IMG/VR virus record: IMGVR_UViG_2851955134_000002
Origin: a virus
Taxonomy: Duplodnaviria; Heunggongvirae; Uroviricota; Caudoviricetes
Reading direction: 5' to 3' (one strand)
Length of the DNA stretch: 38,621 nucleotides
Positions 2,900 to 36,888 of the stretch are shown piece after piece (position 1 is the first letter of the stretch; every line of letters begins with the position of its first letter). The translations under genes and the position numbers were made by a program. The notes beneath the pieces are model-generated. The model made no database searches and was not told where the DNA came from. It saw only the letters and a program-made list of their open reading frames with translations.

Positions 2900-3154
2900 A
2901 TGGCAACAACAGTAAAAGACATGACAGAGATAGCCGCGGCTTACACTCTTATCATACACCGGCTCATAGCTAATAATGCCTGTGATGCACTAAATACGAG
3001 AAAACCTTTACCGAAAGCAAAAAGCGATATTATCAGCGGATTAAAGGCGCTACTGGAATGTGCAGGCTATGCAGATGATTACGCGGCATGCATGGTTATT
3101 AACGATACAATTGAGCGCATTGAATCAGGTAAACCATTAAGAGATTTTGTTTAA
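2900..3154 (+). CDS. Hypothetical early-operon protein
   Basis: 84-aa ATG ORF with GAGGG upstream. Confidence 0.5.
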   Translation: MATTVKDMTEIAAAYTLIIHRLIANNACDALNTRKPLPKAKSDIISGLKALLECAGYADDYAACMVINDTIERIESGKPLRDFV

Positions 3155-3613: not shown

Positions 3614-3817
3614 ATGGCAATTAAGCATTTTCCTGTCGTTCGTTTTACCTCCAGAGGACGTGAATACGAAGTCGACGAACGCCTGATTACCACAATCGAC
3701 AAACACCGTTCAGAAAAGGATGCACATCACATCTATCTCACTGACGGCACTTACTTCTGCGCCACGAATGTGGTGCAGGTGAACCTTATCCGACAGGTAC
3801 AGGAGTCACGCAGATGA
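3614..3817 (+). CDS. Hypothetical protein
   Basis: 67-aa ORF with a strong AAGGAGG RBS 3 nt before the ATG. Confidence 0.55.
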   Translation: MAIKHFPVVRFTSRGREYEVDERLITTIDKHRSEKDAHHIYLTDGTYFCATNVVQVNLIRQVQESRR

Positions 3818-4355: not shown

Positions 4356-4677
4356 GAAACCAGAACATGCACACACAAAAAAACCGCTTGCCATGCCGCA
4401 ATCAGTCAGGTTACATTTCCGCTGCACCTCACAAAACGGGTGCCGGGTTTCGCAGCCTGCTGACTACACAAGCGCACAACCGCGCCAGCGGTTTTTTTGT
4501 GCGTACTGTATTGCCACGTTTTTTTCGCGTCAGAATTATGGCGGGGCGTACGGGGCCGACTTCGGTCGGGCCGGGTTCTTGTGTAGCCGGTACTGCGAAC
4601 CTCGTACGTCTCGCCACCCACAGTTTCGCAGCTCTGGATGGTGAGTTTTCACAACTTACTACACAAGGGGCCACACC

Positions 4678-4908
4678 ATGGCAAACCGCAAACCACACCG
4701 CGCTATCGCGGAGCGTCGTCACATCCAGACTGAAATCAACCGCCGACTTTTCCGCGCATTCCGCGTTGCGCAAATCATGCACATCAACATGCTGCATGAG
4801 CGCAGTCATGCGCTATCAAACACTTATTCCGCCTCTGTTTTCAGCTATCTGGCGGATGATCTACGCGAGCTTCAGCAGCTCATCCAGCAGCAAAACCAAC
4901 TCCGTTAA
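4678..4908 (+). CDS. Hypothetical protein
   Basis: 76-aa ATG ORF with an AAGGGG RBS, after a 320-bp structured non-coding gap. Confidence 0.45.
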   Translation: MANRKPHRAIAERRHIQTEINRRLFRAFRVAQIMHINMLHERSHALSNTYSASVFSYLADDLRELQQLIQQQNQLR

Positions 4909-4980
4909 TTCCTGTTCCGAGCCTTTCCCGCACCCTGCGGCGGGAGGCCTTCGCACATCTGTAGTAAAGAGAATTGCAGC

Positions 4981-5370
4981 ATGATTGACCGTCACGACTT
5001 CGTAAAATGGGTGCGCACACAGGACACCCGTCTGGCCCCAAAACTTCAGGCAATGTTTGATTTTTATCTCCGTGCCCGTGCCAGCCGGGCACGCACCACA
5101 AAACCGGAGAACGCAGACACCCTTTATTTCACCGTGGACGACTGTTACCGCGTGGCCTTTACACCACAAGGTCTGGGCCTGTACACCCTGACACCACACG
5201 GCGACTCCCTGTTGGCGTATTACGACTCCCCGGCCTCCGTATTTGCGGCAATGCTGGCGCATCGTACCGCTGGCGGGTGTGCATCGCTGAGTGAATACAC
5301 CGCTGAATTTAACCGCCTTTCCGTCATCTTTTCGCAGGAGTGGCAGAGCGTGACGGGATACCAGCCATGA
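4981..5370 (+). CDS. Hypothetical protein immediately upstream of gene A
   Basis: 129-aa ATG ORF; no recognisable motif. Confidence 0.45.
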   Translation: MIDRHDFVKWVRTQDTRLAPKLQAMFDFYLRARASRARTTKPENADTLYFTVDDCYRVAFTPQGLGLYTLTPHGDSLLAYYDSPASVFAAMLAHRTAGGCASLSEYTAEFNRLSVIFSQEWQSVTGYQP

Positions 5371-9559: not shown

Positions 9560-9937
9560 CATCAGGGCGTATTCGCCCTGCCACCAATCCCATAACATAA
9601 AGAACGGGGTGCAAATCACTATGCACCCCGTTCCAATACAAACCATCAGAAGATCTACACATCTTTCTCAAATGGCCAAGTAATCGAGCTGGTTCAGGAA
9701 TAAGCATGCTGCCAACACAAGTGAAGGAGATAAAACTGTAGAACTGATCAATCGTTGGAAACAAGTATTGACAATATGTTCGAGTAACCCAACTGGATAG
9801 ATTTTATGCTGATTATCCATACAGTAAAAAAGTGAGGATACTCTTTGAATAACGCCAGCAAGAGTGGTAACATTAGGCACTGATTTTCATCAATGCAGTT
9901 ACCAGCTTACACAAGCTTATGTTTTATTGGGGGTTTT

Positions 9938-11020
9938 ATGGTAAACGTGAGGGAGGATGAACTTTTCAAACTCATCGAGCAAGGCATCAAAGGCAACGCA
10001 AATGCATTTACACTCCTATGCAGAAAGATGATTAACAACATCCGTAAAAATGATGAGGCTTTAGCTTCTAAGCTGGCTTCGTTAATTGCTGAGGGAACAG
10101 TATTACGTGGGGCATCTAGTAAGGCTCCTATGCCTGTGGATGGAGACTCCAGACGAAACCTTTTGCAGGAAACATCTGTCAACGCAATTGTTGAAGAACC
10201 TGTATGGAATACGGATATCTCAAAGAAGCTGGAGTCAATTGTTAACGAAAGAGAGAATGCTGTTTCTTTGTTCAAAGCTGGTCTTGAACCTGTGAAGACG
10301 GTTTTACTTTCTGGCCCGCCAGGCGTAGGCAAAACAATGTCCGCACATTGGCTTGCTGCAAAGTTAAATTTACCTCTTTTAACATTGGATCTCTCATCTG
10401 TAATGAGTTCTCTTTTGGGAAAAACAGGTAATAATATTAAATCCGTTATGGATTATGCCAAAGAGAAACCATGTGTCCTTTTGCTTGATGAATTTGATGC
10501 TGTTGCAAAAAGACGTGATGATGACAGGGACGTTGGAGAATTAAAACGTTTAGTTACTGTACTCCTACAGACCATAGATGAGTGGCCAGCGACCTCGCTT
10601 CTTGTTGCTGCGACTAATCACCCTGATATCTTAGATCCGGCTGTTTGGCGTCGATTTGAGCACATCCTTAAATTTAATATGCCATCAGTAGAACTGATAG
10701 ATAGATATTTAGTCAATCATAATATTGAACCTGAACTATCTAAAAAACTTGCACCATTATTAGATGGCATGTCCTTTGCCATCATTAACCGTATTTTGAA
10801 TTTCTCCAAAAAGAATGAGGTACTTAGAAATATTCCATTTGAAAGCTCATTAATAGAAGCCGTAATTACGGAGAGGGTTTCATTGGATGAATTTAGCGAT
10901 AATGATCTCAATATAATTAAATATCATTTTGACGGTTTTTCAAATAGGAAGATAGCTGAATTAGTTGGTGTTTCACATCCAACAATCGCGAATAAATTAC
11001 AAAAGTGGGGGATTAAATGA
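9938..11020 (+). CDS. AAA+ ATPase with C-terminal helix-turn-helix; first gene of candidate defence pair
   Basis: Walker A (LLSGPPGVGKT), Walker B (VLLLDEFD), sensor-1 (LLVAATN), arginine-finger region (AVWRRFE) and a C-terminal HTH (SNRKIAELVGVSHPTIANKL); AT-rich; start at ATG 9938 (GGGGG upstream) preferred over the track's 9893. Confidence 0.8.
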   Translation: MVNVREDELFKLIEQGIKGNANAFTLLCRKMINNIRKNDEALASKLASLIAEGTVLRGASSKAPMPVDGDSRRNLLQETSVNAIVEEPVWNTDISKKLESIVNERENAVSLFKAGLEPVKTVLLSGPPGVGKTMSAHWLAAKLNLPLLTLDLSSVMSSLLGKTGNNIKSVMDYAKEKPCVLLLDEFDAVAKRRDDDRDVGELKRLVTVLLQTIDEWPATSLLVAATNHPDILDPAVWRRFEHILKFNMPSVELIDRYLVNHNIEPELSKKLAPLLDGMSFAIINRILNFSKKNEVLRNIPFESSLIEAVITERVSLDEFSDNDLNIIKYHFDGFSNRKIAELVGVSHPTIANKLQKWGIK

Positions 11021-13221
11021 TGGAAAGGAACTTACTTTTAGGTAACGGTCATGTTCTGACAAAAAAGGAACCTTTGCCTAAAGGAAGGGATGGTAAGCGC
11101 TATCCCTATACTCTTGAAGAAGTAAGGGAGCATTTAAACCCAGAGATTGATACTTTACTCTCACGCTTTCGCAGTTTGGATGATGCGGCTAAGCCAAGGG
11201 GGGAGAGTGTATTCAATTTAACTTTACACCCAGCGTTTTTGGGTAAAAGCTACTTTCCGGAAGGATTACTTAGAGCGACAGGTTTACGGGATGTCGGTAG
11301 CCGTCAGGTAATCATTCGCCCACGGAAAGCGGCACGTCAGTGCGATCAGAATAAGGACTTAGTAACGGCGCAACTGTTTGTTAGCGGTGATGATGATGCC
11401 GTTATAAGATTTAAGGAAATTTTAAATTCCCCTACAGCTCCGAAGGGCGTACAAAAGGATTTGATCGAAATTGAAAGTGTTAGCTTTTTTGAAGGAAAAG
11501 AGAGAGCACGCAATTTTGAGCATGCGAAAAGTGATTTGATAAAATTTGAAGTGGTTCTTCATGCTGGGGTTGAAGACGATGATATCGTTAAAGCCTATAT
11601 TAGCTATGCGGCACAATATGGTGTCTCTGTTGATTACAAAAGTAGAATCCAAGTTGGTGGACTGACTTTCATCGTTGCACACGCGCGACCTGAAGATATG
11701 AAAAAAACACTCGATTTTTCATTAATCCGCGTTGTGCGGCCGATGCCGTCTCTCAGGTGTACTCAGCCGAACATTGTCAGAAAGTTATCTAATATAGTTA
11801 CACCGGAGCTCCCTAATTCTAAAGCTGTTCTTGAATCCGAACGTATTGCCATTTTTGATGGTGGCTTGGGGACAGCTGACTTGAGTAATTGGGTTACGGA
11901 ATACGTGTATCCAGACACCAAAGAAACAAGCGGATTATTATTGCAGCACGGTAATGAAGTAACATCCACTTTCTTATTCGGACGTGTCGAGGAAAATGCA
12001 CCTTCTTTTAAAAGACCGTTTATGAATGTAGATCATTATAGAGTTCTTTCACCGACATCAGGTGACAATGGCAATTGGGATTTATTTGATGTCCTTAAGA
12101 AAATACAGTCCGTTCTTGATAGTGGTGACTATAAGTTCGCTAATCTAAGTATTGGTCCTCATCTTCCAATTGGTGATGATGAGGTTCATGTATGGACTGC
12201 TGTTTTAGACCAAATCTGTGCTAAGCATGGGATATTACTTACTGTTGCTGTTGGGAATGATGGCAATGAGGACGGTGATGCAGCGAGAATACAACCTCCT
12301 TCCGATATGGTAAACGCGCTAGCGATTGGTGCTGCTGATCGTAGCGGTGAAAAATGGGGGCGGGCACCATATAGCTGTATTGGCCCAGGCAGAAGCCCCG
12401 GATTCGTTAAACCTGATGGTGTTATTTTTGGTGGAAGCGACGACGAGCCTTTTTACACTTACAACCCTCTGCTTGGTTCTATAGTTGGAGTTCAAGGAAC
12501 CAGTTATGCCTCTCCATTAGCATTGAGAACGGCCGCTGGAGTTGCGGCTCTATCAGGAACTCCATTGAACACCATTGCATTGAAAGCGTTGCTTGTTCAT
12601 CATGCTGAAACATCAAGAAAATATTCGCGTGAACATATCGGTTGGGGACGGTTTAGTGAGGATCCTAACGTTTTAATCGATTGTCCAAATGATACTGCTA
12701 CAGTAATTTACTATGGTTCATTAGCAAAAAATAAATATTTAAGGGCACCGATCCCATTCCCTGATGTTCCATTTGACGAAGCATTTGAGCTTACCGCTAC
12801 TTTATGCATTCAAACCCCAGTAGATCCTGAACATTCAGTAAACTATACAAGGGCCGGTATGCAGGTAACTTTCCGCCCAAGATTCGGCCTTGACGATACC
12901 GATACAGATGATTTCTTTGGTCAAAAAAGCCAGTATAAGACTGAAAGGGAGTGTAGGAGTGAAGGTCATAAGTGGGAAACTTGTTTGCACAGAAGCAAAA
13001 AGTTCAGTACTGATACATTATTAAGCGATCCAGTTTTTGATATACGGTATCATGCCCGAGATTCTTCGCGCCATGTTAAGGGAGTTTCAGCCCCTGATAT
13101 GCAATATGCGATGGTAATAAGCGTAAGGGTAAAAGACTTTGATTTATATAATGTTATTCGCCAGCGATATACAATTCTGAATCCTATTCAACTGCGCACA
13201 CAAATTTCTCTCGACACGTAA
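11017..13221 (+). CDS. S8 subtilisin-like serine protease with about 270-aa N-terminal domain of unknown function; second gene of candidate defence pair
   Basis: Subtilase motifs in the canonical D-H-S order (IAIFDGGLG, LQHGNEVTS, oxyanion-hole VAVGNDG, GTSYASP); start overlaps the ATPase stop (ATGA), implying coupled translation. Confidence 0.8.
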   Translation: MMERNLLLGNGHVLTKKEPLPKGRDGKRYPYTLEEVREHLNPEIDTLLSRFRSLDDAAKPRGESVFNLTLHPAFLGKSYFPEGLLRATGLRDVGSRQVIIRPRKAARQCDQNKDLVTAQLFVSGDDDAVIRFKEILNSPTAPKGVQKDLIEIESVSFFEGKERARNFEHAKSDLIKFEVVLHAGVEDDDIVKAYISYAAQYGVSVDYKSRIQVGGLTFIVAHARPEDMKKTLDFSLIRVVRPMPSLRCTQPNIVRKLSNIVTPELPNSKAVLESERIAIFDGGLGTADLSNWVTEYVYPDTKETSGLLLQHGNEVTSTFLFGRVEENAPSFKRPFMNVDHYRVLSPTSGDNGNWDLFDVLKKIQSVLDSGDYKFANLSIGPHLPIGDDEVHVWTAVLDQICAKHGILLTVAVGNDGNEDGDAARIQPPSDMVNALAIGAADRSGEKWGRAPYSCIGPGRSPGFVKPDGVIFGGSDDEPFYTYNPLLGSIVGVQGTSYASPLALRTAAGVAALSGTPLNTIALKALLVHHAETSRKYSREHIGWGRFSEDPNVLIDCPNDTATVIYYGSLAKNKYLRAPIPFPDVPFDEAFELTATLCIQTPVDPEHSVNYTRAGMQVTFRPRFGLDDTDTDDFFGQKSQYKTERECRSEGHKWETCLHRSKKFSTDTLLSDPVFDIRYHARDSSRHVKGVSAPDMQYAMVISVRVKDFDLYNVIRQRYTILNPIQLRTQISLDT

Positions 13222-13673: not shown

Positions 13674-14723
13674 TCAGGATGTGGGCGGGGTATCCAGCAG
13701 AGCGTAAGGGTTAAAGCGGATCACCTCCTCGCCCAGCCAGTCATTAACGTGCTTCATCGCCTCCATCACCGGCATCAGTTCATTGATCGCAAACACTCTG
13801 GCCGCCTTCTCCACATCACCAAAAGAACCCTGCCCGCTGGGCATTGCGCCCATCAGTTGCGGTGGTACACGGTGAGCGGCCAGCACATCATCACGTGAGG
13901 CGGTCTTGACGTTCATAAACTCATCCCGGGCGGTGATCTGCTGAAACGGCAGGATCTGCACGCCGTCCTTTCCGCCGTTCGGTGCCTGGAGCAGCAGGTT
14001 TTTGAATGCCCCGCCGCCTCTTGCGCCCTGTAATGCGTTTTCGAGTGCCTGCATGCTTTCGCGGTCAACCTGTGCAGCCCCCACGTAAATGATGCAGCCT
14101 GCGTGTGAACCGTTGTCATAGTAGAGTTTGCGGAAGCGGTCCGCCGAGTGAGACAGACTGGCAGACAGCAGGCCGCCGAGGTATTCCGGCATCCCGTAAA
14201 CTTCCTGGTTGATGTCGGGATTCATGACGTGACAGACGCGCCCCTGACGGAACTCGTGATCCTGCTCCCCCGCCTGCACAAACCAGTACACATCAGGTTC
14301 CACACCTCGGCGGGTGTACTTCGCCAGCGCGTGCCGCAGTTCCAGCTTTCCGCCCAGCCTGTTGGTGCGCAGTTCAAGAAACGCATTCCCGAACACAAAC
14401 CAGTCCAGCGCAAAGGCGGAGAACGCCTGCCGGGACAACAGCCGGTGCGGAATGAAGCAGCCCAGAAGGGCATTCCGCTTGAAGTACAGCGCCGACTGGT
14501 GCCACGAGGTCTGCCGGGATGCCCGCGCCAGTCCGTACCAGTCAACGGGCGTTTCGTAGTATCTGCCGTTACTCAGACAGTATGCGTTATCCAGCAGGTC
14601 GAGTGCGTGCGCATCGTAAGGGCCGTCGAACGAGAAGGCGCTTAACGACGGCTGGCGGCGCAGTGCCTCTGCCAGCGCCACGCCGTCATCGCGGCGCGAA
14701 TATTTTCGTTTTTGTTTTTTCAT
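13674..14723 (-). CDS. Q: Portal protein (P2 gpQ-like)
   Basis: 349 aa, ATG start; length and position (next to the terminase gene, facing the cos region) match P2 Q. Confidence 0.85.
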   Translation of the reverse strand: MKKQKRKYSRRDDGVALAEALRRQPSLSAFSFDGPYDAHALDLLDNAYCLSNGRYYETPVDWYGLARASRQTSWHQSALYFKRNALLGCFIPHRLLSRQAFSAFALDWFVFGNAFLELRTNRLGGKLELRHALAKYTRRGVEPDVYWFVQAGEQDHEFRQGRVCHVMNPDINQEVYGMPEYLGGLLSASLSHSADRFRKLYYDNGSHAGCIIYVGAAQVDRESMQALENALQGARGGGAFKNLLLQAPNGGKDGVQILPFQQITARDEFMNVKTASRDDVLAAHRVPPQLMGAMPSGQGSFGDVEKAARVFAINELMPVMEAMKHVNDWLGEEVIRFNPYALLDTPPTS

Positions 14724-16477
14724 CAGAACTCAATCACCCGCATTCCTGTAGCACCGTCCTCATCGCCCAGCGGCTCGTTAATGACGGCAAGCATGGTTGC
14801 CCACGCGAGGTCGCCGTGGTTCACGCCGCGTGTGCGGTCTGTTTCATACGTTATTGCCCCACCCGCCGTTTTTGCCTTGCGCACAGCGTTGAATGCCCTG
14901 ACCAGCTCACGTTCGCCCCGGTCATACTCCCAGCGCCCCGCACGAATAATCTGCAACATCTTCAGCACAAGCGCGCGTTTGGATGCCAGTGTGAACGTGT
15001 ACGGCACGGCGGCAGGCCAGAACCGCCGCACTATCTGGTACACCGCCTCACCGTTACCGCCGGTCACGTCGATACCAATGTGCTGGACGTTGTATTTGTG
15101 CGTGAACTGCTCAATCACACGGGCCTGCTCTTCAAATTCCAGCCCCTGCACCTGTAACGTCTCCACCGTGCGGAATTTGCCGCCCCTGACAGCAGGCGGA
15201 ACAACAACAGACAGCGCCCCGCTGTCGCCGTTACCGCTGCTGCCGTTAGCGTCGTAGCCAATCCACACCGGACGATTACCCACCGGACGTGCTGCGAACG
15301 GTTTCCAGTCATTCCACTCATCATAGCCGTCCACACCACAGCCCAGCAGGGCATTAAGGTCGAAGGCGGATTCGCCGTCGCTGACAAACTCGCACATGTA
15401 GAGATTGCGGAACTCATCCGGCGAGTTCATGTTGCGGATTTTGTCGATACTGGTGAGCGTCCAGCCCAGGTCCACCGCATCCTGAATCGTCACGATTTGT
15501 CGCCACGCGCTGTCGGGGCACAGCACCCCACTCTTCAGAGCATGATGGGACACATCAATCTCCCGGCGCTCACTGCGTGGTCGCCCGGCATTCCACCGCG
15601 CGCCGTTCCAGAACTGAAACGCCTCGTGCATCTCCGATGACGGCGTGGAAAAGTAGGTCTGCGTCAGGCCATTCAGCGTGGCCATCGCGCCTGCGACCTT
15701 GCGCAGCGTGATGAAGTTCGACACCCAGAAAAATTCGTCAAAATACAGATTGCCCGTATAGGACTGCGCAGTCGCGGCGGATGTCCCCAGAAAATGCAGT
15801 TCCGCGCCGTTAGAAAGCACAATTTTGTCACCGCCTTTCAGCTCGACGTCCACAGCCTGTGCCGCCTTCTGAATCACGCTTTTAAACTGAAAGGCCTGAC
15901 GGCGTGAGGCTGACAAAAAAATCTGGTTTCGCTGGTACGGATATTTCACGCTCTCATCCAGCGCACGCAGCAGTGCCTCCTGCGCAAAATACCAGGTCGC
16001 GCCTATCTGTCGGGATTTCACAATGATGCGAATATCAACACCGGCACGACGGCAGACGTCCAGTGCCTCATACCAGCGTCTCTGATGCTCTGCCAGTTGA
16101 CCGGTGATGTGTTCGCGCAGTGCGGCAACCTGCGATTCGGAAAAATGGTTTTTCAGCTTTCGTTTTCGCGGGCTTTTTTCCGCTCCGCCCCTGTTGTCAT
16201 TCAGTTTTGCGAGCTGGCGTGTCAGCAGGTCGATTTCCTTAAAATCACCGCCGCTCTTTTCAGCTTTTGAGGTCAGCTGAACCAGTCGCGCATCAATCGA
16301 CTGCGTGACCCGCTCCACGGGCGGCGTTTCATCCCATCCGTCGCGCTTTTTCCACGAATAAATCGTGTTCTGACTGATACCCATCAGCCGCGATATTTCA
16401 GCGGGCGGGTAGCCCTGCCAGTAAAGCTGTTTTGCCCGCAGCCTGATGAATGCGTCCTGAATCATGCCGTCTGTCAC
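14723..16477 (-). CDS. P: Terminase large subunit (P2 gpP-like)
   Basis: 584 aa; its stop overlaps the Q start; divergent from O as in P2. Start is GTG at 16477 or ATG at 16465. Confidence 0.85.
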   Translation of the reverse strand: MTDGMIQDAFIRLRAKQLYWQGYPPAEISRLMGISQNTIYSWKKRDGWDETPPVERVTQSIDARLVQLTSKAEKSGGDFKEIDLLTRQLAKLNDNRGGAEKSPRKRKLKNHFSESQVAALREHITGQLAEHQRRWYEALDVCRRAGVDIRIIVKSRQIGATWYFAQEALLRALDESVKYPYQRNQIFLSASRRQAFQFKSVIQKAAQAVDVELKGGDKIVLSNGAELHFLGTSAATAQSYTGNLYFDEFFWVSNFITLRKVAGAMATLNGLTQTYFSTPSSEMHEAFQFWNGARWNAGRPRSERREIDVSHHALKSGVLCPDSAWRQIVTIQDAVDLGWTLTSIDKIRNMNSPDEFRNLYMCEFVSDGESAFDLNALLGCGVDGYDEWNDWKPFAARPVGNRPVWIGYDANGSSGNGDSGALSVVVPPAVRGGKFRTVETLQVQGLEFEEQARVIEQFTHKYNVQHIGIDVTGGNGEAVYQIVRRFWPAAVPYTFTLASKRALVLKMLQIIRAGRWEYDRGERELVRAFNAVRKAKTAGGAITYETDRTRGVNHGDLAWATMLAVINEPLGDEDGATGMRVIEF

Positions 16478-16530
16478 CTCCTGTCATACAGGCTACACGC
16501 GCACGTCCCGTCTGTATTCACACCGCACTT

Positions 16531-16548
16531 TGTCGCAACACTCCGACA
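16531..16548 (+). promoter_or_regulatory. Candidate Ogr-type late-activator site (TGT-N12-ACA) in the P/O divergent promoter region
   Basis: TGTcgcaacactccgACA fits the TGT-N12-ACA dyad recalled for P2 late promoters; it lies about 77 bp upstream of the O start. Confidence 0.4.
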
Positions 16549-16616
16549 ACACCACCGCGTTGAGCGCGGGCCACAGGGCGCGTCATCATGAGCACAACGA
16601 TATTCGAGGAGGCCGT

Positions 16617-17486
16617 ATGGCAGACAAGAAACCTGAACGAAAAAAATTCCGCGTGGCCGTTTCCGGTACGACCTCAGACGGGCGCGAAATCTGTGGCGAT
16701 ATGCTGAAAGCTGCCGCTGCCAGTTATGACCCGTCCGTCTACGGTGCACGTGTGAACGTGGAGCACATCCTTTCACCGCATCCGGACAGCGCCTTCGCGG
16801 CGATGGGGGATGTGGTGGCACTGAGCGCAGAGAACATCACTGACGGGCCGCTGGCGGGGCGCACGGCGCTGTATGCCGAAATTGAACCGACTGAGCGCAT
16901 GAAAAAACTGCTGGATGACGGCAAAAAGATTTATGCCAGCGTCGAGCTTTACCCGCAGTCATTCATCACGGGCGGTCCGTATCTTCAGGGACTGGCGATG
17001 ACCGACACCCCGGCAAGTCTTGGCACTGAGCGTCTGCAGTTTGCCGCACAACAGCGCGCGCAGGTGATGGCGTTTAACAATCAGCAGTGCGAGCCGCCGC
17101 TGTTCACCGATGCCATTGAGGCTGAAATTATCGCCCTGAACCAGCGCCAGAACGACGAAGGCGTTCAGTGGTTCGCGCGTGTCATGAACCTTATCAGCGG
17201 CGGGCGTAAAACGGACAGCGAACAGTTCAGCCAGATGCGTGATGTCGTTGAGCGCGTGGCCTCTGCGCACGCTGACCTGCTTGACCGTTTCAACGCACAG
17301 GAACGCCAGCGCGACGAAGACCGCGCACAAGTCACCCGCCTGACCCGCGAACTGACCACGCTGCGTACACAGTTGCAGGCACAGGACGGCGACCCGCATC
17401 AGCGCTTCTCCGCAACGGGCACTGACGCACCTGCTCACCCTGGCGTAACCGGCGGCGGTATTGCTTACACCGCCTGTGATTTCTGA
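16617..17486 (+). CDS. O: Capsid scaffold protein (P2 gpO-like)
   Basis: Start taken at the ATG with AGGAGG RBS (MADKKPERKKFRV...), giving 289 aa, close to P2 O; the track ORF extends upstream on a non-ATG codon. Confidence 0.8.
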   Translation: MADKKPERKKFRVAVSGTTSDGREICGDMLKAAAASYDPSVYGARVNVEHILSPHPDSAFAAMGDVVALSAENITDGPLAGRTALYAEIEPTERMKKLLDDGKKIYASVELYPQSFITGGPYLQGLAMTDTPASLGTERLQFAAQQRAQVMAFNNQQCEPPLFTDAIEAEIIALNQRQNDEGVQWFARVMNLISGGRKTDSEQFSQMRDVVERVASAHADLLDRFNAQERQRDEDRAQVTRLTRELTTLRTQLQAQDGDPHQRFSATGTDAPAHPGVTGGGIAYTACDF

Positions 17487-20052: not shown

Positions 20053-20252
20053 TGAAGGTGAAGGCATTACAGGGCGACACCGTTGACCTGCTGTGCTTCC
20101 GGCACTACGGCACAACGCAGGGTGTGACCGAAAAGGTGCTGGCCGCTAATCCGGGGCTGTGCGGACAGATTTTTCTGGAGGCAGGACAGGAAGTGGAATT
20201 ACCGGAGCAGGAAGAGAAAAAAACACGGGAGACGGTGCAGTTATGGGATTAG
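20052..20252 (+). CDS. X: Tail protein X (P2 gpX-like)
   Basis: 66 aa from the ATG overlapping the L stop; MKVKALQGDTVDLLCFRHYGTT... resembles P2 X. Confidence 0.75.
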   Translation: MKVKALQGDTVDLLCFRHYGTTQGVTEKVLAANPGLCGQIFLEAGQEVELPEQEEKKTRETVQLWD

Positions 20253-21602: not shown

Positions 21603-22085
21603 ATGCTGAAAATGAACCGTCTGCGCGAAGCCCTCACCGCCTCATCCCGGTGGTGTCGCGCGAATCCGGAAAAACTCACCGTGTTTGCAGAAAGCGGAAA
21701 TATTGAGACCACCGGTGAAACCCCGACGTTTGTCTACCGTTACACGCTCGTGGCCTTCGTCATGGATTTTCCGGGACACATCGACGAGCTGATGCTGCCG
21801 CTGATTGTCTGGCTCATGCACAACCAGCCGGATTTGCTGCTCAACCCGGAGAAAAACGGGGACGTTAAGTTTTCCGTTGCCGTCAATGACGACGACAGTA
21901 CCGACCTGTTACTGGAAATTCCCGTGCGTGAACGCGTGAAAGTCTGCCGCAATGAAAACGGTGAACTGTATCCGGTGCACCTGCCGGAACCGCGACCGCC
22001 TGCCGTGCTGACAGGCGGCTGGGGCGATGTGATTGTTGAAGATGTGACCTTTAAGGATTTGACCGATGAACACCGCAGTGCATGA
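21603..22085 (+). CDS. R: Tail completion protein (P2 gpR-like)
   Basis: 160 aa, AAGGAG RBS; position in the R-S-V-W-J-I-H series. Confidence 0.7.
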   Translation: MLKMNRLREALTASSRWCRANPEKLTVFAESGNIETTGETPTFVYRYTLVAFVMDFPGHIDELMLPLIVWLMHNQPDLLLNPEKNGDVKFSVAVNDDDSTDLLLEIPVRERVKVCRNENGELYPVHLPEPRPPAVLTGGWGDVIVEDVTFKDLTDEHRSA

Positions 22086-22704
22086 GCTGGATGTGGTTTT
22101 CCGCGACATTCTGGACGGGCTTTCCGCCGCCGGACGGGCACGCACGGCACGGGCTGTCGGGCAGGCGCTGCGCCGGAGCCAGCAGGCGCGCATCCGCGCA
22201 CAGAAGAACGCAGACGGCTCGCCGTATCCGGCACGAAAACGGCAGGTGATGCACACCCGTCGTGAAGTGAAATTTGTGTGGAACGGCGAGGTCCGCACGC
22301 TGCGCCAGTGGGGACACAAGCGTTACCGGAAAGGCCGCGCCATTATCGGGCGCGACCCTGACCGTGGCGGCGCGCTGAGGACGTTTTACCGTGATGATAT
22401 TGAGCGATACATCGCGGTATCGTCCATGTCTGCCCGCCAGACCAGCAAAAAAAACACGCCGATGTTCGCGCGTCTTCGCACATACCGCTGGTTAAAAATG
22501 CGCTCAGATGCGGAAGGCGCTGTTGTGGGCTTCGATGGCCTGGCTGCGCGGATTGCCCGCGTGCATCAGGCAGGGTTACGCGACGAGGTGGCTCCGGGCG
22601 TGATGACCACCTACCCGGTGCGTGAACTGCTGGGTATCACGGCAGCCGACGAACGCCTGGTACATGACACGATTATCCGCTCCCTGAGGAGCGCGGCACG
22701 ATGA
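22066..22704 (+). CDS. S: Tail completion protein (P2 gpS-like)
   Basis: ATG-initiated ORF overlapping the R stop; longer than I recall for P2 S, so the true start may be internal. Confidence 0.65.
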   Translation: MNTAVHELDVVFRDILDGLSAAGRARTARAVGQALRRSQQARIRAQKNADGSPYPARKRQVMHTRREVKFVWNGEVRTLRQWGHKRYRKGRAIIGRDPDRGGALRTFYRDDIERYIAVSSMSARQTSKKNTPMFARLRTYRWLKMRSDAEGAVVGFDGLAARIARVHQAGLRDEVAPGVMTTYPVRELLGITAADERLVHDTIIRSLRSAAR

Positions 22705-23282
22705 CAGCGGAAATCATGCGACTGCTTGCAAACATCATCCGCACGGGCGTGATTTTTGCCGTGGACGAAACCACGTGGCGCGTTCGTGTGCGCAGCGGAG
22801 AGCTGGAAACCGACTGGCTGCGCTGGAACACACCACGCGCGGGCGCGTTCAGCATATGGCTGCCGCCTGCCGTGGGCGAACAGGTCATGATTGCCTGTAT
22901 CAATGGCGACCCCGCAACCGCCACCGTCATCGGCAGTCTCTGGAGCAGCGAACATCCTGCGCCCGGTAGCAGCCTGACGGAAATCGTGGTCACAGCGCCT
23001 GACGGCGCGGTGTTCCGCTACGATGCGGACGCAGGCGCGCTGAGCGCCAGCGGAATCAGAACAGCCACCATTCAGGCCGGAACGGGCGTGACGCTGGACA
23101 CCCCCACCGTCACCTGCACAAACCATCTGAAAGCGGCAACGTTTGAGGTGACAGAAGGCGGAACCCTGAGTGGCAATATCTCGCACAGCGGCGGTGATTT
23201 CACCTCCAACGGTGTGACGCTGCACACGCACAAACACAGTGGCGTGAAGAGCGGCGGCGACACCACAGGAGACCCGCAGTGA
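22701..23282 (+). CDS. V: Baseplate spike/assembly protein (P2 gpV-like)
   Basis: 193 aa; ATGA overlap with S; position and size match P2 V. Confidence 0.8.
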   Translation: MTAEIMRLLANIIRTGVIFAVDETTWRVRVRSGELETDWLRWNTPRAGAFSIWLPPAVGEQVMIACINGDPATATVIGSLWSSEHPAPGSSLTEIVVTAPDGAVFRYDADAGALSASGIRTATIQAGTGVTLDTPTVTCTNHLKAATFEVTEGGTLSGNISHSGGDFTSNGVTLHTHKHSGVKSGGDTTGDPQ

Positions 23283-27661: not shown

Positions 27662-27734
27662 AATCACGCCACCACCTCGTTATCTGTATGAGGTGGTGGC
27701 GTCAGGTTAAGGGAATGCGTTCAACGACGACGAT

Positions 27735-27839
27735 TTGTCTTTAAGCGTATTCAGTGATTCCCCACACAGATGCAGGCTGAAGTTTCTCCCACATATCCTC
27801 ATCACACCATTGAAAGCCTGCAGGAAACTCAATTCTTTC
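27735..27839 (-). pseudogene. Decayed 3' fragment of a gpU-like tail gene
   Basis: About 105 bp aligning by eye at roughly 80% identity with the 3' end of the intact U gene (28518-28620), same orientation; the reading frame is broken. Confidence 0.6.
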
Positions 27840-28160
27840 AGGCAAGCTTCAGAAAATTATAAATTTCAACAGATACAATTAAAATGATTTACAACGAAAT
27901 CCCCTGCTGCCGGAGGCAAAAGAGGGGATCAGCATCTGGCAATCTGAGTTGTTGCCTGGCACTATCAGTGATGAATACAGATGAAGCCTGGCTGCGTGGA
28001 TTGAATACATTAAAGAACTTCAGCAGGTGACTTTCACTTCCGTGAAGGACAAAGATTATTACAATGCGCTGGTATGGCCTGAATCGCCATCAAAGGGGGT
28101 TTTACAGAAGGCATAATATATTTATAATCCCGCAGCGTTATACACATGCAAACATTCTTT

Positions 28161-28186
28161 GCCCGCCCCGTGCGGGCTTTTTTTTT
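28161..28186 (+). terminator. Rho-independent terminator in the AT-rich intergenic block
   Basis: GCCCGC-CCCGT-GCGGGC hairpin followed by nine T. Confidence 0.55.
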
Positions 28187-28349
28187 ACCACAAAGATACA
28201 GTAACAGACAAAATTGTAATCAGAGCAACAAAATCGCAGGAAACATTTTCATCGATGACGATAATAATTAAAAATATTGTTTCAATAACGCCAACCCAAT
28301 ATAATCCCTTCCGGAACATAGAACTTTAAATCTTCACACAATGCATGTT

Positions 28350-28372
28350 GCCCTCTTTATGAGGGCTTTTTT
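28350..28372 (+). terminator. Rho-independent terminator in the AT-rich intergenic block
   Basis: GCCCTC-TTTAT-GAGGGC hairpin followed by TTTTTT. Confidence 0.5.
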
Positions 28373-28495
28373 ATTTCCCGAATATCACCATTGCCTTCAT
28401 CGGGCGATTTATATATAGTGAGAATGTATTGACAACATTTGCTTTTCTTCCATAACGGGTATAAGGGAGTGTTTTTTACACTCCCTTCTTTTTAT

Positions 28496-28954
28496 TCAGA
28501 ATGCCGCTGTCGCCATTTTGTCTTTAAGCGTGTTCAGTAATTCACCCGCAGAAGCTGACTGAAGTTTCTCCCTCATATCCTCATCACACCGCTGAAAACT
28601 GACAGAAAACTCAATCTTTTTTGCCTTTCCGTAACGATCCAGTTCGGAGCGGGTGGTCTGTAATCCCGTAATCACGTACATTCCGTAAATCTGCCCCGTG
28701 CCATCAATCAGCGGCCAGGGACATCCGGTGTAGGCCTGAGTGTTCAGTAGTGTCAGTGACACCTCACCGCCGGTAATTTCGGGATACAACATGCCGGACA
28801 GCGTGATCTGATCATCACCTGCACCAATATACTGCCAGGCCGCAGAGCGGTTAATGCGCTCATTTTTCACATGTCGCCATGTTTTGCTCTGCTGGATCTG
28901 CTGATGCGGCAGTGTCTTCAGTTCAAACACAAACATGCCAAAAATCATCATCAT
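28496..28954 (-). CDS. U: Tail protein U (P2 gpU-like)
   Basis: Start at the MMM triplet (MMMIFGMFVFEL...) with an AAGGAG RBS, as at the N-terminus of P2 U; the track ORF begins on an upstream GTG. Confidence 0.8.
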   Translation of the reverse strand: MMMIFGMFVFELKTLPHQQIQQSKTWRHVKNERINRSAAWQYIGAGDDQITLSGMLYPEITGGEVSLTLLNTQAYTGCPWPLIDGTGQIYGMYVITGLQTTRSELDRYGKAKKIEFSVSFQRCDEDMREKLQSASAGELLNTLKDKMATAAF

Positions 28955-28967
28955 AATTGCGTCTCCT

Positions 28968-31900
28968 TTAGTCCCTGTCACGGAAGCTGTTCATGCCTGT
29001 ACGCGCCTGTCTGCGCATCTCTTCGCGGACAGCCTCACCAACCAGTGTTGCCAGTTCACGCGGATTCTGTGTGTTGACGTTGTGCAGATGCACATGTATC
29101 TCACCGGAAAATGCCGCAGCCTGCGTTTGTGGCGCGGTTTCTTTTTTGACGGACTCCGGTCGCAGCGGTGGACGGATAACCTCCGCAACAGGAACAGATA
29201 AAGCCACATCTCCACCCGGGCCGTTTACAGCCTCACGCACGCGCTGAATACCGGCAACCAGCTCTGCATTTGCCTCGTTGTGCTGCGGCTGTGACAGCGT
29301 GGACACCTGACGGGCCACGCTCACCACTGGCGCAGGCACATTCACTGCCGGCATCAGAACGTTAACCACGGGGGAAGGCAAAGCACCCTCTCCACCCGGA
29401 CTGTTCACCGCCTCATGCACACGCTGAATACCGGCAACCAGTTCTGCATTTGCCTCGTTGTGCTGCGGCTGTGACAGCGTGGACACCTGACGGGCCACGC
29501 TCACCACTGGCGCAGGCACATTCACTGCCGGCATCAGAACGTTAACCACGGGGGAAGGCAAAGCCCCCTCTCCACCCGAACTGTTCACCGCCTCATGCAC
29601 ACGCTGAATACCGGCAACCAGTTCTGTATTTTCCTCGTTGTGCTGCGGCTGTGACAGCGTGGACACCTGACGGGCCACGCTCACCACTGGCGCAGGCACA
29701 TTCACTGCCGGCATCAGAACGTTAACCACGGGGGAAGGCAAAGCACCCTCTCCACCCGGACTGTTCACCGCCTCATGCACACGCTGAATACCGGCAACCA
29801 GCTCTGCATTTGCCTCGTTGTGCTGCGGCTGTGACAGCGTGGACACCTGACGGGCCACGCTCACCACTGGCGCAGGCACATTCACTGCCGGCATCAGAAC
29901 GTTAACCACGGGGGAAGGCAAAGCCCCCTCTCCACCCGAACTGTTCACCGCCTCATGCACACGCTGAATACCGGCAACCAGTTCTGTATTTTCCTCGTTG
30001 TGCTGCGGCTGTGACAGCGTGGACACCTGACGGGCCACGCTCACCACTGGCGCAGGCACATTCACTGCCGGCATCAGAACGTTAACCACGGGGGAAGGCA
30101 AAGCACCCTCTCCACCCGGACTGTTCACCGCCTCATGCACACGCTGAATACCGGCAACCAGTTCTGCATTTGCCTCGTTGTGCTGCGGCTGTGACAGCGT
30201 GGACACCTGACGGGCCACACTCACCACTGGCGCAGGAATATTCACGGCCGGAACGGGTGAAACAGTCTGTCTTCCGGTGAGTTTCTGCCAGAGCGTTGTC
30301 AGCGCATCCGCCACTCCTCCGCCCGCCGATACCGCCTGCACTGTCCGGATAACCTGCGGCGCTTTCCACTCGCCGTGAATGATTTCGGGCGCTGGCAGAT
30401 TTTTGAAAACAATATCGCCGGGGCCAGTACGTTTTTTGGTTTCCTCAAGAAGCCCGCCTGTATTGCTGGCGGTTTTCTGTATCCCCTGCCGGAACCATGC
30501 CTCATCCAGCGGGGATTTGCTGCCGGGTTTGCCGACCGGATTGTCCGCCGTTCCCCTCACCTCTCCGGGAACAGCAGGGGCAGGTTTATTGTCACCGTTG
30601 TTTTCCGCTGCATCTGATGACCACGACCATGTTTTCTGCACCATTTTTTTCTGTGCAGGATCCCACTCCCACACAACCGGCGCTTTTTGTGTGGCCTGTT
30701 TTGCGGCACTCTCCTGGAGTTTTTGTGTCTCCTTCTGTGCCTCTTTGATGCCGTCCGGGATGACACCCAGCCACTTCAGCACGGTACCGAGACCATCAAG
30801 GAGCAGCGTCAGCGGCCCCAGCACAATGTTCTGAATGACCCACCCCAGCGTTTTGCCGAACGACTCCCCGGCACTGGTGCATTTGTCGAGCGTCTCTTTT
30901 GAGGCGTTCGCAGGTTCAAGCAGGCGGGTGAACCACTCCCACACAGCTTTAATGCCGTCGCCAATCAGCCCGAACACCGGAGCCAGCGATGCAAAGGCTT
31001 CCCGCAGCGGTTGCAGCGCCTCCCACACTCCGGCAAAAAAGCCGGAAAAAAACGCGCTGATCTGATCCCAGCATCTCCACACCAGAACCGCGCCGCCCAC
31101 CAGGGCGGCAACAATCAGCCCGACCGGGCTGAACAGCGCCCCCAGTGCGCCCCCCAGTACCGACACCGCCCCTGTGACCAGTCCCCACAGGGAAGACAAT
31201 CCCGTCAGGCGCAGCGCCAGCGCGGACACAAGCCGGACAGCCCCACCAATGCCACCGCCCCCCGTCAGCAGCCCCAGCCCCAGTTGCAGTTTTGCCAGTG
31301 GCCCCGCAATCAGCCCGAGCGTCAGTGACAGCGCACCGAATGTGGAAGACAGCGCCAGAACACTCCCGCCCGCCAGTACCAGCACCCTGACCAGCGCCTG
31401 ATGCTCACCGACCCATTCGCGCATCCGGCTCACCCACGCGCTCACCGTCTGAACCAGACCGCGCAAATCCTCCGTCACTGTACCGAAGATGTCCGTGCGT
31501 AGCCCTGAGAACGCGCCACTCAGCGCCTGAACATCGCCGGAAAGATTACCGCGCAGCGTCTGCCCCATGCGGTCTGCCACGCCGCTGACATCACCCAGGT
31601 TGTCACGGACATCGGCCAGCGCCTTTAAGAACTGCGGGATCTGGTCAACGGAGAGGTCTTCAACGGGTGTGCCGAACAGCGCAATGGCCGTGTTCGCCCG
31701 CTCTGCCGGGTCACGGATGGCCAGCAGTGCACGGGCGGTCACCTGCATCGCCTGACGTGCGTTGCTGCCCCCCTGTGCAATGGCAGCAGACACCCGTTCG
31801 GCATTCAGGCCGAGTGTCTCATACGCTGAGACACTGGATTTCGACATATCCGAACCCCGGATGCTGAACTCCTTCACGGCATCGCCGGTTTTATCCAGCG

Positions 31901-33011
31901 CAAACTTGCCCTGCTTCGCCATCTCAACCAGCAGGCTCATTGTCTCGCTGCCGGTGAAGCCCATGTTGCGGAAGTGGGTGGAATACTCATGCAGAATTTC
32001 CGGCAGTTCATCGCGCATTTCAGCGGACATGCGCTGCATCCCTGCCGTCATCAGGTTGGTGGCCTCGTCACTGCTGGCGGCCAGCCCGTTCTTCATCATG
32101 ATGGCTGCAGCCTGAATGCTCTGCGGCACATCAACACCAAAGACGGTCCGCATGTCCAGCGCGCGACGACTGATGCGCTCCAGTTCCCGGTCGCCGGTGT
32201 CGCCCAGCGCACCGAGCGTGCTGCGTACCGCACTCACGGCCTCCGCAGCACCGGCAAAATCAGCGAGACCGTCAGCCTGTATGTTACGGATGATGTGAGT
32301 GTAACGTGCGCCATCCTCTGCGCCTTCCCCCGAACCGGCTGCGATAACCGCGCCGTGCTGTTCGAATTCCATCGCCGGAGCCATCATGCGCTGCGCCGCA
32401 TACAGGCCACCTGTACCCGCCGCCATCGCCACAGCCCCTGTGTTGCGCAGTTTTTCCGCCTGAGCCTTCGCGGCCTCATAGCGGTTCTGTGCCTGCGTCA
32501 CGCGAGCCAGCACCTGCCGTTCGCGCTCGAGCTGCTCGTTGTACTGCTGTGTGCGGCGAACGGCACTTTCGATGGTCCGGCTGCTACCGGAAAGCAGAAT
32601 GCCGTGTCTGCGCATTTCCCCTGCCGCCGCCTGAAGTTTTTCGCGTTCGCGCGTGCGCAGCTCGTTCAGGCGCTCAAGACGTGCAGACAGCGCCGTCATC
32701 ATCTCCCGCTGCTTTTCAGAGAGGGTGTTGCCGTCCTGCTCTGCCTTTCGCAGCCCGGCGAGCCTCTGCTCCGCGCGGGCAATCTGTTCGCGATATTTAC
32801 TGAGATTTCCGGCGGCACGATCGAACACCTTCGACTGCCTGTCGAGCGCCTGTATGTTGTTCTGCGTCTTCTGAAGGGATTCAGTGAGAGCGCCCACCTG
32901 ACGGCGGGCGTTTTCGGTCGGGCGTGTCAGCCGGTCGATTGCGCCAAAGCTGACACGAATATCAAGGGATTTCACTGTTGCGGACTCCGCTGCGTTGCGC
33001 CGCCCGCTCAC
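28968..33011 (-). CDS. T: Tail tape-measure protein (P2 gpT-like), expanded by tandem repeats
   Basis: 1347 aa between E and U; coiled-coil N-terminal part, glycine-rich TM-like central segments and six tandem 60-aa repeats near the C-terminus; GTG start. Confidence 0.85.
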   Translation of the reverse strand: MSGRRNAAESATVKSLDIRVSFGAIDRLTRPTENARRQVGALTESLQKTQNNIQALDRQSKVFDRAAGNLSKYREQIARAEQRLAGLRKAEQDGNTLSEKQREMMTALSARLERLNELRTREREKLQAAAGEMRRHGILLSGSSRTIESAVRRTQQYNEQLERERQVLARVTQAQNRYEAAKAQAEKLRNTGAVAMAAGTGGLYAAQRMMAPAMEFEQHGAVIAAGSGEGAEDGARYTHIIRNIQADGLADFAGAAEAVSAVRSTLGALGDTGDRELERISRRALDMRTVFGVDVPQSIQAAAIMMKNGLAASSDEATNLMTAGMQRMSAEMRDELPEILHEYSTHFRNMGFTGSETMSLLVEMAKQGKFALDKTGDAVKEFSIRGSDMSKSSVSAYETLGLNAERVSAAIAQGGSNARQAMQVTARALLAIRDPAERANTAIALFGTPVEDLSVDQIPQFLKALADVRDNLGDVSGVADRMGQTLRGNLSGDVQALSGAFSGLRTDIFGTVTEDLRGLVQTVSAWVSRMREWVGEHQALVRVLVLAGGSVLALSSTFGALSLTLGLIAGPLAKLQLGLGLLTGGGGIGGAVRLVSALALRLTGLSSLWGLVTGAVSVLGGALGALFSPVGLIVAALVGGAVLVWRCWDQISAFFSGFFAGVWEALQPLREAFASLAPVFGLIGDGIKAVWEWFTRLLEPANASKETLDKCTSAGESFGKTLGWVIQNIVLGPLTLLLDGLGTVLKWLGVIPDGIKEAQKETQKLQESAAKQATQKAPVVWEWDPAQKKMVQKTWSWSSDAAENNGDNKPAPAVPGEVRGTADNPVGKPGSKSPLDEAWFRQGIQKTASNTGGLLEETKKRTGPGDIVFKNLPAPEIIHGEWKAPQVIRTVQAVSAGGGVADALTTLWQKLTGRQTVSPVPAVNIPAPVVSVARQVSTLSQPQHNEANAELVAGIQRVHEAVNSPGGEGALPSPVVNVLMPAVNVPAPVVSVARQVSTLSQPQHNEENTELVAGIQRVHEAVNSSGGEGALPSPVVNVLMPAVNVPAPVVSVARQVSTLSQPQHNEANAELVAGIQRVHEAVNSPGGEGALPSPVVNVLMPAVNVPAPVVSVARQVSTLSQPQHNEENTELVAGIQRVHEAVNSSGGEGALPSPVVNVLMPAVNVPAPVVSVARQVSTLSQPQHNEANAELVAGIQRVHEAVNSPGGEGALPSPVVNVLMPAVNVPAPVVSVARQVSTLSQPQHNEANAELVAGIQRVREAVNGPGGDVALSVPVAEVIRPPLRPESVKKETAPQTQAAAFSGEIHVHLHNVNTQNPRELATLVGEAVREEMRRQARTGMNSFRDRD
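29211..30235 (-). repeat. In-frame tandem repeat inside the tape-measure gene: about 5.7 copies of a 180-bp unit
   Basis: Units at 29341, 29521, 29701, 29881 and 30061 are nearly identical and alternate between two variants (protein NEANAELV...NSPGGEG versus NEENTELV...NSSGGEG), so the true unit is 360 bp in about three copies. Confidence 0.9.
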
Positions 33012-34103: not shown

Positions 34104-35285
34104 TTACGCACCTCCCAGCGTTGCAAAAGCGGAGTCGAAATACTCATCCGTGAAGGTCTGGTACAGCGTCAGGTCTTCCATCGGCGGCACTGGTGTGTAC
34201 TTGTAGCGGATACGCACGCGCCCCTGACGTAAATCCGTCGTGCCGTTGTCCAGCACGTCATACCAGCACTCCGCACCGATAAGTTTTCCGGCGGTGACCA
34301 GGGCATTGAGTTTTGCGCGGATGGCGCTAATCACGTCCTTCACGTTCGCCGGGGTCAGCGGTTCGTCAATGGTTTCGAACTGTGCTTCGGCGATGGTATC
34401 TGCCAGAATCTGCGCTGTGCGCGTGTACACCTCAAAGATGTAGTCGCTGGTTTCGGCGGTACGGTTCCCCCAGAAGCGGAAGCCGTTACGGCGAATAATC
34501 GTGGTGATTTCCTTGTTGTTCAGGTTGTTCGCATCACTGTCTTCGGCCTGCAACGACCAGAACACCTGCTGCGACATACCGAGCACATTTTTCAGCGCCA
34601 CGTTGGACAGTGACTTATGCCAGCCCTGCTCACTGTCAATCCGCGCACGCAACCCGCACGCATACGCCGCTGCCGGAAACGTTTCGTTATTTCCGCTCAC
34701 CGGGTTGTAGGCAATGAAGTCAGGCCACAGCAGCATCAGCTCACGCGCGGAGAACTTAGCGCGGTAAGTGATTGCCTCCGCCATCGTGTCACAGCCGTTA
34801 CATCCGGCGTACACAAAGGCGCGGAGCTTGTCCGCAATGACGCACAGGGCAGATGTGACAGCTTCGGTATCAAGGCCGGGAGCCGCCAGAATACGCGGGC
34901 GGTAACCAATGCTCTCATCCTGTTCGGCAACCAGCAGGGCATACATGCCCGTGTAGCTGCCGTCAGCCTGCGAGCCACCAATAACAAGCTGATCCTGTGT
35001 CTCACCTTCCTCTCCGGCTTCTGCCACACGCACCACGATAACCTTCGGGCTGGTCTGGTCGGAAATCGCCTTGAGCGTTTTGTACAGCGTGCCTGTTGTG
35101 CCTGCCTTACCCAACACATTCGCCACGCGGGTGATCAGTACGGGCTTGTTTAACGGGAACGCGTCGCTGTCTGCATCGTCCGCCGTGGCCACGATACCGA
35201 TGACACTGGAATCAATGTCATTAATCGCGGTCACGAGGTCGGTGTTTTCTTTGACGCGTGCGCCGTGAAAGCGTGTTTCACTCAT
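34104..35285 (-). CDS. FI: Tail sheath protein (P2 gpFI-like)
   Basis: 393 aa from the ATG with AGGAGG RBS; the TADDAD..FPLNKPVLIT N-terminal region resembles P2 FI as I recall it. Confidence 0.9.
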   Translation of the reverse strand: MSETRFHGARVKENTDLVTAINDIDSSVIGIVATADDADSDAFPLNKPVLITRVANVLGKAGTTGTLYKTLKAISDQTSPKVIVVRVAEAGEEGETQDQLVIGGSQADGSYTGMYALLVAEQDESIGYRPRILAAPGLDTEAVTSALCVIADKLRAFVYAGCNGCDTMAEAITYRAKFSARELMLLWPDFIAYNPVSGNNETFPAAAYACGLRARIDSEQGWHKSLSNVALKNVLGMSQQVFWSLQAEDSDANNLNNKEITTIIRRNGFRFWGNRTAETSDYIFEVYTRTAQILADTIAEAQFETIDEPLTPANVKDVISAIRAKLNALVTAGKLIGAECWYDVLDNGTTDLRQGRVRIRYKYTPVPPMEDLTLYQTFTDEYFDSAFATLGGA

Positions 35286-35446
35286 GAGCACCTCCTGGTG
35301 TTATTTGTGGTGCTATCCTCCCGAAAAACGCCACGACATTCACGCGCCGCCCCTTCTCGCCGCTCTCCTACAACATGCGCGGCTCGCGGTGTATTTCGCG
35401 TGTGTGGAATGATTTGCAGGACGAAGACACAGACGGAGAAAGCGGG

Positions 35447-36630: not shown

Positions 36631-36888
36631 GTGTCTTTTCCGTGTCCTTTTTGTGGTGCGAGCACACGCACCCGCACCAGTCGCGCAGCGAACGATACCG
36701 GAACTGTCCGCTGGAAACTCTGCCAGTGCAACAACCCGGAATGCAGTCTCTCCTTCTCGACGCTGGAGAGTTTCGACAAAATCACTGTTAAACGTTATGG
36801 CAGCACTTCACAGGATATTCCGTGGCAAAGCCTGCCTGCGTCTCACCGGGGTGATGCGCAGTTGTCACTGCCGTTTCCGGTAATGTGA
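36631..36888 (+). CDS. ogr: Ogr/Delta-family zinc-finger late transcription activator
   Basis: GTG start 8 nt after AAGGAGG; CPFCG...(22 aa)...CQCNNPEC four-cysteine arrangement typical of Ogr. Confidence 0.75.
   Translation: MSFPCPFCGASTRTRTSRAANDTGTVRWKLCQCNNPECSLSFSTLESFDKITVKRYGSTSQDIPWQSLPASHRGDAQLSLPFPVM

Follow-up and report, generated by a model that had tools for sequence, protein, structure and literature searches.

The box between the divergent genes P and O of a P2-like prophage very likely binds the Ogr/Delta-type late activator that the phage itself encodes and serves the promoters of both genes, and a second site of this kind very likely lies between genes FI and D. The window analyzed here is the whole stretch of 38,621 nucleotides with the IMG/VR virus record IMGVR_UViG_2851955134_000002 (Caudoviricetes). 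Judged from its sequence, the P–O box is a functional-looking and ordinary instance of the bidirectional late promoter of P2 and 186; most likely it is the activator site usual in P2-type phages, shared by the two promoters and set to switch on both divergent operons. In a first-pass annotation of the same DNA the box had been assigned to gene O, and degenerate sites had been suggested for the P/Q operon and for the inverted gene FI.

The window encodes a prophage of the P2 family (Peduoviridae) with kinship to P88 (genus Xuanwuvirus), and close copies of this prophage are present in E. coli chromosomes. Among named phages those of the P88 type come nearest, with capsid genes of about 75% nucleotide identity to the window. 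At the P–O locus, identity reaches 98–99% with a few chromosomal loci of E. coli, among them those of strains TUM9803 and SWHEFF_58. Gene order is the same in P88 and in related prophages of E. coli, which also have the inverted FI-to-U block divergent from D. Virion-assembly genes recognized by Pfam flank both proposed sites, namely terminase/portal and scaffold/capsid at the first, and sheath through GpU, and GPD, at the second. The leftward P–Q late operon is headed by gene P, the terminase large subunit (14723–16465, minus strand), followed by gene Q, the portal (13674–14723, minus strand; Phage_portal). Gene P matches Terminase_6N (1e-50), Terminase_6C and Terminase_5 (gpP-like), and an N-terminal helix–turn–helix domain is also found by Pfam. 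Its start was placed at ATG 16465 from homologue alignment and from close relatives as annotated by NCBI (PGAP); GTG 16477 was dropped because the same two sources favour the ATG. As P starts at ATG 16465, the P–O gap extends over 16466–16616 (151 bp). The rightward late operon is headed by gene O, the capsid scaffold/protease (16617–17486, plus strand; Phage_GPO, 6e-83), and the gene after it encodes a P2-type major capsid protein (Phage_cap_P2, 3e-119). Gene FI, the tail sheath (34104–35285, minus strand; Phage_sheath_1 and related domains), heads the inverted tail operon, which runs in the order FI, FII, E, T, U and ends at 28496; further Pfam matches in this block are GpU (4e-40) and the tape measure PhageMin_Tail. 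Gene D, the tail/baseplate hub (35447–36580, plus strand; Phage_GPD, 3e-17), diverges from FI, and the start codons ATG 35285 (minus strand) and ATG 35447 (plus strand) bound an FI–D gap of 161 bp (35286–35446).

Several features of the window outside the two gaps were also recorded. A low-GC (38–43%) two-gene cargo (9893–13221, plus strand), located between ParM-type partition genes and the portal gene Q, matches the anti-phage defence pair IetA (E 3e-89) and IetS (E 5e-41). The tape-measure gene (28968–33011, minus strand; 1347-amino-acid protein) contains 5.8 in-frame copies of a 180-bp (60-amino-acid) tandem repeat at 29209–30251, with 96% matches, and each repeat unit contains TGT-N12-ACAAC. 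The E. coli prophage L167, related at 94%, carries about 2.8 repeat copies and a 1154-amino-acid tape measure, and P88-type phages have none; since the copy number differs, tail length is suggested to vary between relatives. A low-GC stretch at 27700–28500, where the fibre and tail operons converge, contains a near-consensus sigma-70 promoter (TTTACA-16-TATAAT, 28101–28128) and strong terminator-like hairpins at 28161, 28350 and 28463; at the matching position in P88-type phages there is an invertible fibre segment together with a DNA invertase.

The sole exact TGT-N12-ACA match in the P–O gap (TGTCGCAACACTCCGACA) lies at 16531–16548, with its centre at 16539.5 and no strand assigned, as previously noted. 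It sits in a perfect 6-bp inverted repeat, TTGTCG-N8-CGACAA (16530–16549), and its right half runs on as ACAACA (16546–16551). This dyad is predicted to be an Ogr-type activator site common to the P and O late promoters. On the O side, its centre is 47 bp from the conserved −10-like hexamer CATCAT (16584–16589, plus strand), the predicted −10 of the O late promoter, and the earlier description of a divergent Ogr-type late-promoter region with a box well placed for O is thereby borne out. On the P side, the centre is also 47 bp from TAGCCT (16490–16495, minus strand), the predicted −10 of the P/Q late promoter. The same hexamer forms the −10 of P2 pP, 8 nt upstream of the annotated start (hexamer 3029..3024, start 3016). 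Transcripts are accordingly predicted to start at about 16482–16483 for P/Q and at about 16596 for O, which would place the dyad at about −56 for both promoters. The −10 assignments are weak hexamers, picked by position and conservation. Upstream of CATCAT the window has CGT, where most relatives have TGn (an extended −10), and a weak TTGAGC 18 bp upstream of CATCAT is kept in some clades only. A consensus scan of the P–O gap (16466–16616) and the FI–D gap (35286–35446) found no sigma-70 −35/−10 pair, which fits activator-dependent promoters.

With the box at 47 bp from TAGCCT as well, the first-pass view that the P/Q operon lacked a dyad is not supported, and known phages of the family are arranged in the same manner. 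The P2 RefSeq record annotates a single 'activator binding site; pO, pP promoters' at 3057–3087, and the P2 starts at 3016 (minus strand) and 3127 (plus strand), separated by 111 bp, lie symmetrically around 3071.5, on which TGTGTCAGTGATAAGCCA is centred. The 186 RefSeq record annotates a single B-protein site at 3798–3817 for 'activation of pV and p12 promoters', with TAGCCT 46 bp from its centre. In the Stenotrophomonas phage Smp131, PP' and PO' are listed as the same 18 bp read both ways (PMC3931495). Since P2, 186 and Smp131 each have one box for both divergent promoters, a single shared box is the family norm; given the P2 and 186 annotations and the equal distance of the dyad from both hexamers, a separate site for P/Q is probably unnecessary. 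The alternative that the box serves the O operon only, with P/Q and the inverted FI using other degenerate sites or another route, draws on the presence of one exact box in the P–O gap and none near FI, and on one-mismatch matches nearby at 16482–16499 and 16558–16575. Neither of these is at an activator position, however. The former was ruled out as an activator site because it covers the P −10 and the ribosome-binding site, and the latter because its centre would fall near −30 of O; a further ground for rejecting both is that each region of the relatives has a single T[G/C]T-N12-ACAA, located at this main dyad. The −10-like hexamers at 47 bp on both strands and the single site annotated for both divergent promoters in P2 and 186 also count against an assignment to O only, as does a conserved TCT-N12-ACAACA site next to FI; this alternative is very improbable.

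The site near FI, TCTCGCCGCTCTCCTACA, differs from the exact pattern by one mismatch, lies between FI and D at 35355–35372 and reads TCT-N12-ACAACA. The earlier statement that no dyad lies upstream of the inverted FI is therefore valid for exact matches only. As the predicted second activator site (TCT-N12-ACA, TCTCGCCGCTCTCCTACAACA), it extends to 35375, has its centre at 35363.5 and is given no strand; its position suggests that it would be common to the inverted FI operon and the D–ogr unit. The predicted −10 of the FI operon, GAGGAT (35315–35320, minus strand), is 46 bp from the dyad centre and aligns with GATGAT, AATCAT, GATTAT or AATTAT in relatives. The predicted extended −10 of D, TGG-AATGAT (35405–35413, plus strand), has its hexamer at 35408–35413, 47 bp from the centre, and in the FI–D alignment the D side of clades L007, L008, L011, L040, L066 and P88 shows TGn followed by (G/A)AnnAT-type hexamers. 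Transcripts are predicted to start near 35307 (minus strand) for FI and near 35420 (plus strand) for D. On all four sides of the two dyads, −10-like hexamers are found 46–47 bp from the centre, compared with 45–46 bp in P2 and 186, for which starts are annotated. The suggested use of degenerate sites is correct in so far as the FI site has one mismatch, but TCT is what this lineage usually has, and even the sites annotated in P2 and 186 read TGT-N12-CCA, with one mismatch to ACA, only the P4 sites being exact. As the window has TGT at P–O and TCT at FI–D, the activator must accept G or C in the left half.

The conservation of both sites was followed in viral contigs, with 80 loci sampled next to homologues of O and 80 next to homologues of D; the contig collection contains 308 relatives of gene D. 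Exactly one T[G/C]T-N12-ACAA was present in 27 of 27 distinct P–O regions and in 59 of 59 distinct FI–D regions. Across these 86 distinct regions the half-sites are kept and the 12-bp spacer is free to vary, although conservation inside each region partly reflects shared ancestry. The ACAACA half is nearly invariant among relatives. The left half of the P–O site is TGT in the clade of the window and TCT elsewhere, that of the FI–D site is TGT in some clades and TCT in others, and TCT is the majority form in the lineage. The O-side hexamer in relatives is CATCAT, CATGAT, CAGTAT or AATCAT, in exact register and without gaps to the dyad, mostly after TGn; the P-side hexamer is TAGCCT, TAATCT, TAAGCT or TACTCT (TAnnCT), 46–47 bp from the dyad with a shift of at most 1 bp. 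In two relatives with flanking genes about 94% identical (L167, at 20205–20245, and L088), an unrelated sequence, TCTGGCGGTTCTCCGACAACA, replaces the counterpart of approximately 16505–16545 of the window. The replacement covers the spacer, the left half-site and about 30 bp further left; from the CGACAACA half rightward the sequence is unchanged. The difference is a local mosaic patch with an edge inside the activator site.

The motif itself is short, and its frequency in the window was therefore compared with shuffled sequence. The window has 13 exact TGT-N12-ACA matches where 9.3 ± 3.0 would be expected, and a count of at least 13 arises in 12 of 100 shuffles; six of the 13 matches are copies of the 180-bp tandem repeat in the tape-measure gene. 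With no enrichment of the bare pattern over the window, an exact match is by itself weak evidence, even though the shuffle expectation corresponds to only about 0.04 matches in a gap of 151 bp. The extended form T[G/C]T-N12-ACAAC, in contrast, occurs nine times against 2.1 expected, a count reached in none of 100 shuffles. Six of these matches are in the tandem repeat, one is inside gene O and two are in the divergent late gaps, which together span 313 bp (0.8% of the window) and would be expected to hold about 0.017; the match at 17033 in O and the six tape-measure copies were taken as coding-sequence coincidences. A matrix was also built from 17 non-redundant sites of relatives, with the clade of the window left out and both strands scored. 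It ranks the FI–D site first in the window (21.7) and the P–O site second (20.0); in simulated windows the maximum averages 12.9 (sd 2.6) and reaches 20.5 at most. A matrix from FI–D sites alone still places the non-homologous P–O site second, whereas one from the four distinct P–O sites of relatives was noisy and put the two sites of the window fifth and sixth. A third match to the lineage matrix at 4442–4473 (score 17.2) was ruled out as a site and judged to be chance: it has two core mismatches (TTT...ACT), is within the range of random maxima, and falls, in the early region, within both the isrK small-RNA gene and an Ash-family open reading frame. At this locus Rfam matches above the gathering score identify an isrK Hfq-binding RNA (4424–4498, plus strand; 64 bits) and a C4 antisense RNA (4534–4621, plus strand; 83 bits), which overlap the start of the Ash-family frame (4367–4984).

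A position weight matrix from P2 and 186 sites had been proposed as a check. Built with the addition of P4 (seven sites), it fails to single out either site: P–O scores 11.4 (rank 7) against a null mean maximum of 14.6, and FI–D is outside the top ten, because the motif without position and conservation carries too little information to discriminate. This failure, together with the unremarkable number of bare matches, is what could be cited for a chance dyad without a regulatory role, the late operons being driven by other signals. Such a coincidence would, however, have to account for half-sites kept around a variable spacer in 86 of 86 distinct related regions, for the same motif with the same ±46–47 bp geometry in two non-homologous gaps, for the first and second ranks of these two sites by the lineage matrix, for an enriched extended motif present in both gaps, and for a cognate activator gene in the same phage; it is regarded as extremely improbable.

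The activator gene, ogr-like, lies at 36631–36888 (plus strand), 50 bp downstream of D, and encodes 85 amino acids from a GTG start preceded by an AAGGAGG ribosome-binding site. The product has the zinc-finger motif CPFC-N22-C-x-C-N4-C and matches Pfam Ogr_Delta (PF04606) with an E value of 6e-12 and 45.7 bits, above the curated cut-off of 26.3. Its identity is 36% with P2 Ogr, 31% with 186 B and 58% with the protein of the P88 type, and the four cysteines are invariant when these three proteins and Delta are aligned with it. An Ogr-type zinc finger is encoded within 1.5 kb downstream of D in 55 of 80 related D loci. In P88 itself (L001, NC_026014), a frame with CPLC-N22-CNNLEC lies just after D at about 34470–34730 (plus strand), where the reference annotation has no ogr. 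A consensus scan detected no promoter in the 50-bp gap between D and ogr. The dyad might instead bind another protein, such as a Cox/Apl-type or immunity regulator, the helix–turn–helix of terminase P or a host factor; P does have such a domain at its N-terminus, and the left half in the lineage is mostly TCT where the canonical form is TGT. Nevertheless, the half-sites (TGT/ACA, ACAACA), the N12 spacing and the position fit the Ogr/B/Delta family, the top two lineage-matrix matches are the two late gaps, the third being the isrK match judged to be chance, and an Ogr gene follows D in most relatives. Binding by a protein of another type is consequently considered highly improbable.

The P2/186/P4 type of Ogr-dependent late promoter is characterized by transcription that requires the activator and the alpha subunit of RNA polymerase and is blocked by the host mutation rpoA109, and by a footprint of the activator on the dyad; in P2, Ogr-type activators bound near −55 work through the alpha subunit. 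In the mechanism proposed here, the Ogr/Delta-type zinc-finger protein (36631–36888) would bind at 16531–16548, midway between back-to-back promoters that have −10-like hexamers but no −35. A single bound activator, at about −56 for each promoter, would most likely recruit RNA polymerase to both in a class I-type manner, via the alpha subunit by analogy with P2. Activation from the P–O site would then yield leftward transcription of P–Q and rightward transcription of O and onward, and the FI–D site (35355–35372) would act likewise on the FI-to-U tail operon and on D. If the D promoter reads through into ogr, the activator gene would be under its own control.

The O operon appears to continue across the genes for head, lysis, baseplate and fibre without a separate V promoter. 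The S- and V-type open reading frames overlap (22066–22704 and 22701–23282), and a lineage-matrix scan found no further motif match from O to the fibre genes, so the late genes appear as four units driven from two sites. Slightly more confidence than doubt attaches to the wider proposal that inversion of the FI-to-U block gave this lineage a second bidirectional Ogr-type promoter, that two sites therefore serve four units without a V promoter, that ogr is subject to positive feedback, and that the ACAACA half stands on the O side, opposite to its placement in P2 and 186. If true, ogr would lie downstream of one of its own targets and form a positive feedback loop. The second bidirectional site arising from the tail-block inversion, the possible self-activation of ogr, and the asymmetric site reversed relative to P and O in comparison with P2 and 186 would be modestly new.

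For annotation, a single P–O box in P2-like prophages is the expected state and leaves no hole in the regulon. Searches for exact TGT-N12-ACA will miss real sites, since P2 and 186 use CCA and the lineage of the window mostly uses TCT. The P88-like layout of two sites and four operons is a compact case of one activator site for divergent promoters; the P–O and FI–D sites are clear targets in such E. coli prophages, and no new biological question is opened by them.

Among known systems, P2 resembles the window in its leftward P–Q and rightward O units, a gap of about 150 bp with one partial dyad midway, the pP −10 TAGCCT, and a small Cys4 zinc-finger activator encoded after gene D. The start spacing is 111 bp in P2 (annotated) and about 114 bp in the window (predicted), and the distance from hexamer to dyad is 45–46 bp in P2 and 47 bp at the P–O site of the window. 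However, the P2 site, TGT-N12-CCA, has its better-conserved half, TGTTGT, on the P side, whereas the window has an exact TGT-N12-ACA with ACAACA on the O side; P2 has separate pV and pF promoters, whereas the window has no visible V promoter and an inverted F operon; and P2 Ogr is only 36% identical to the activator of the window. Phage 186 likewise has a single site, with TAGCCT on the p12 side at 46 bp (47 bp in the window), but this site reads TGT-N12-CCA, its B protein is 31% identical, and pJ lies upstream of a sheath gene oriented as the head genes, whereas the sheath operon of the window is inverted. In the Ralstonia phages RSA1 and RSY1 the motif is TGTTGT-N13-ACAACA, reported for RSY1 in late promoter regions without sigma-70 promoters, and its ACAACA is the invariant half of the window; these phages and Smp131 differ from the window in host and operon arrangement, and the Ralstonia phages also in spacer length. 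A further counterpart is P88, for which a literature search found no promoter analysis of the late genes. It shares with the window the inverted FI-to-U block divergent from D, ogr after D, and one T[G/C]T-N12-ACAACA per gap with −10-like hexamers 46–47 bp away, and differs in a P–O site that reads TCT-N12-ACA rather than TGT and in a tape measure without the 180-bp repeats that the window carries.
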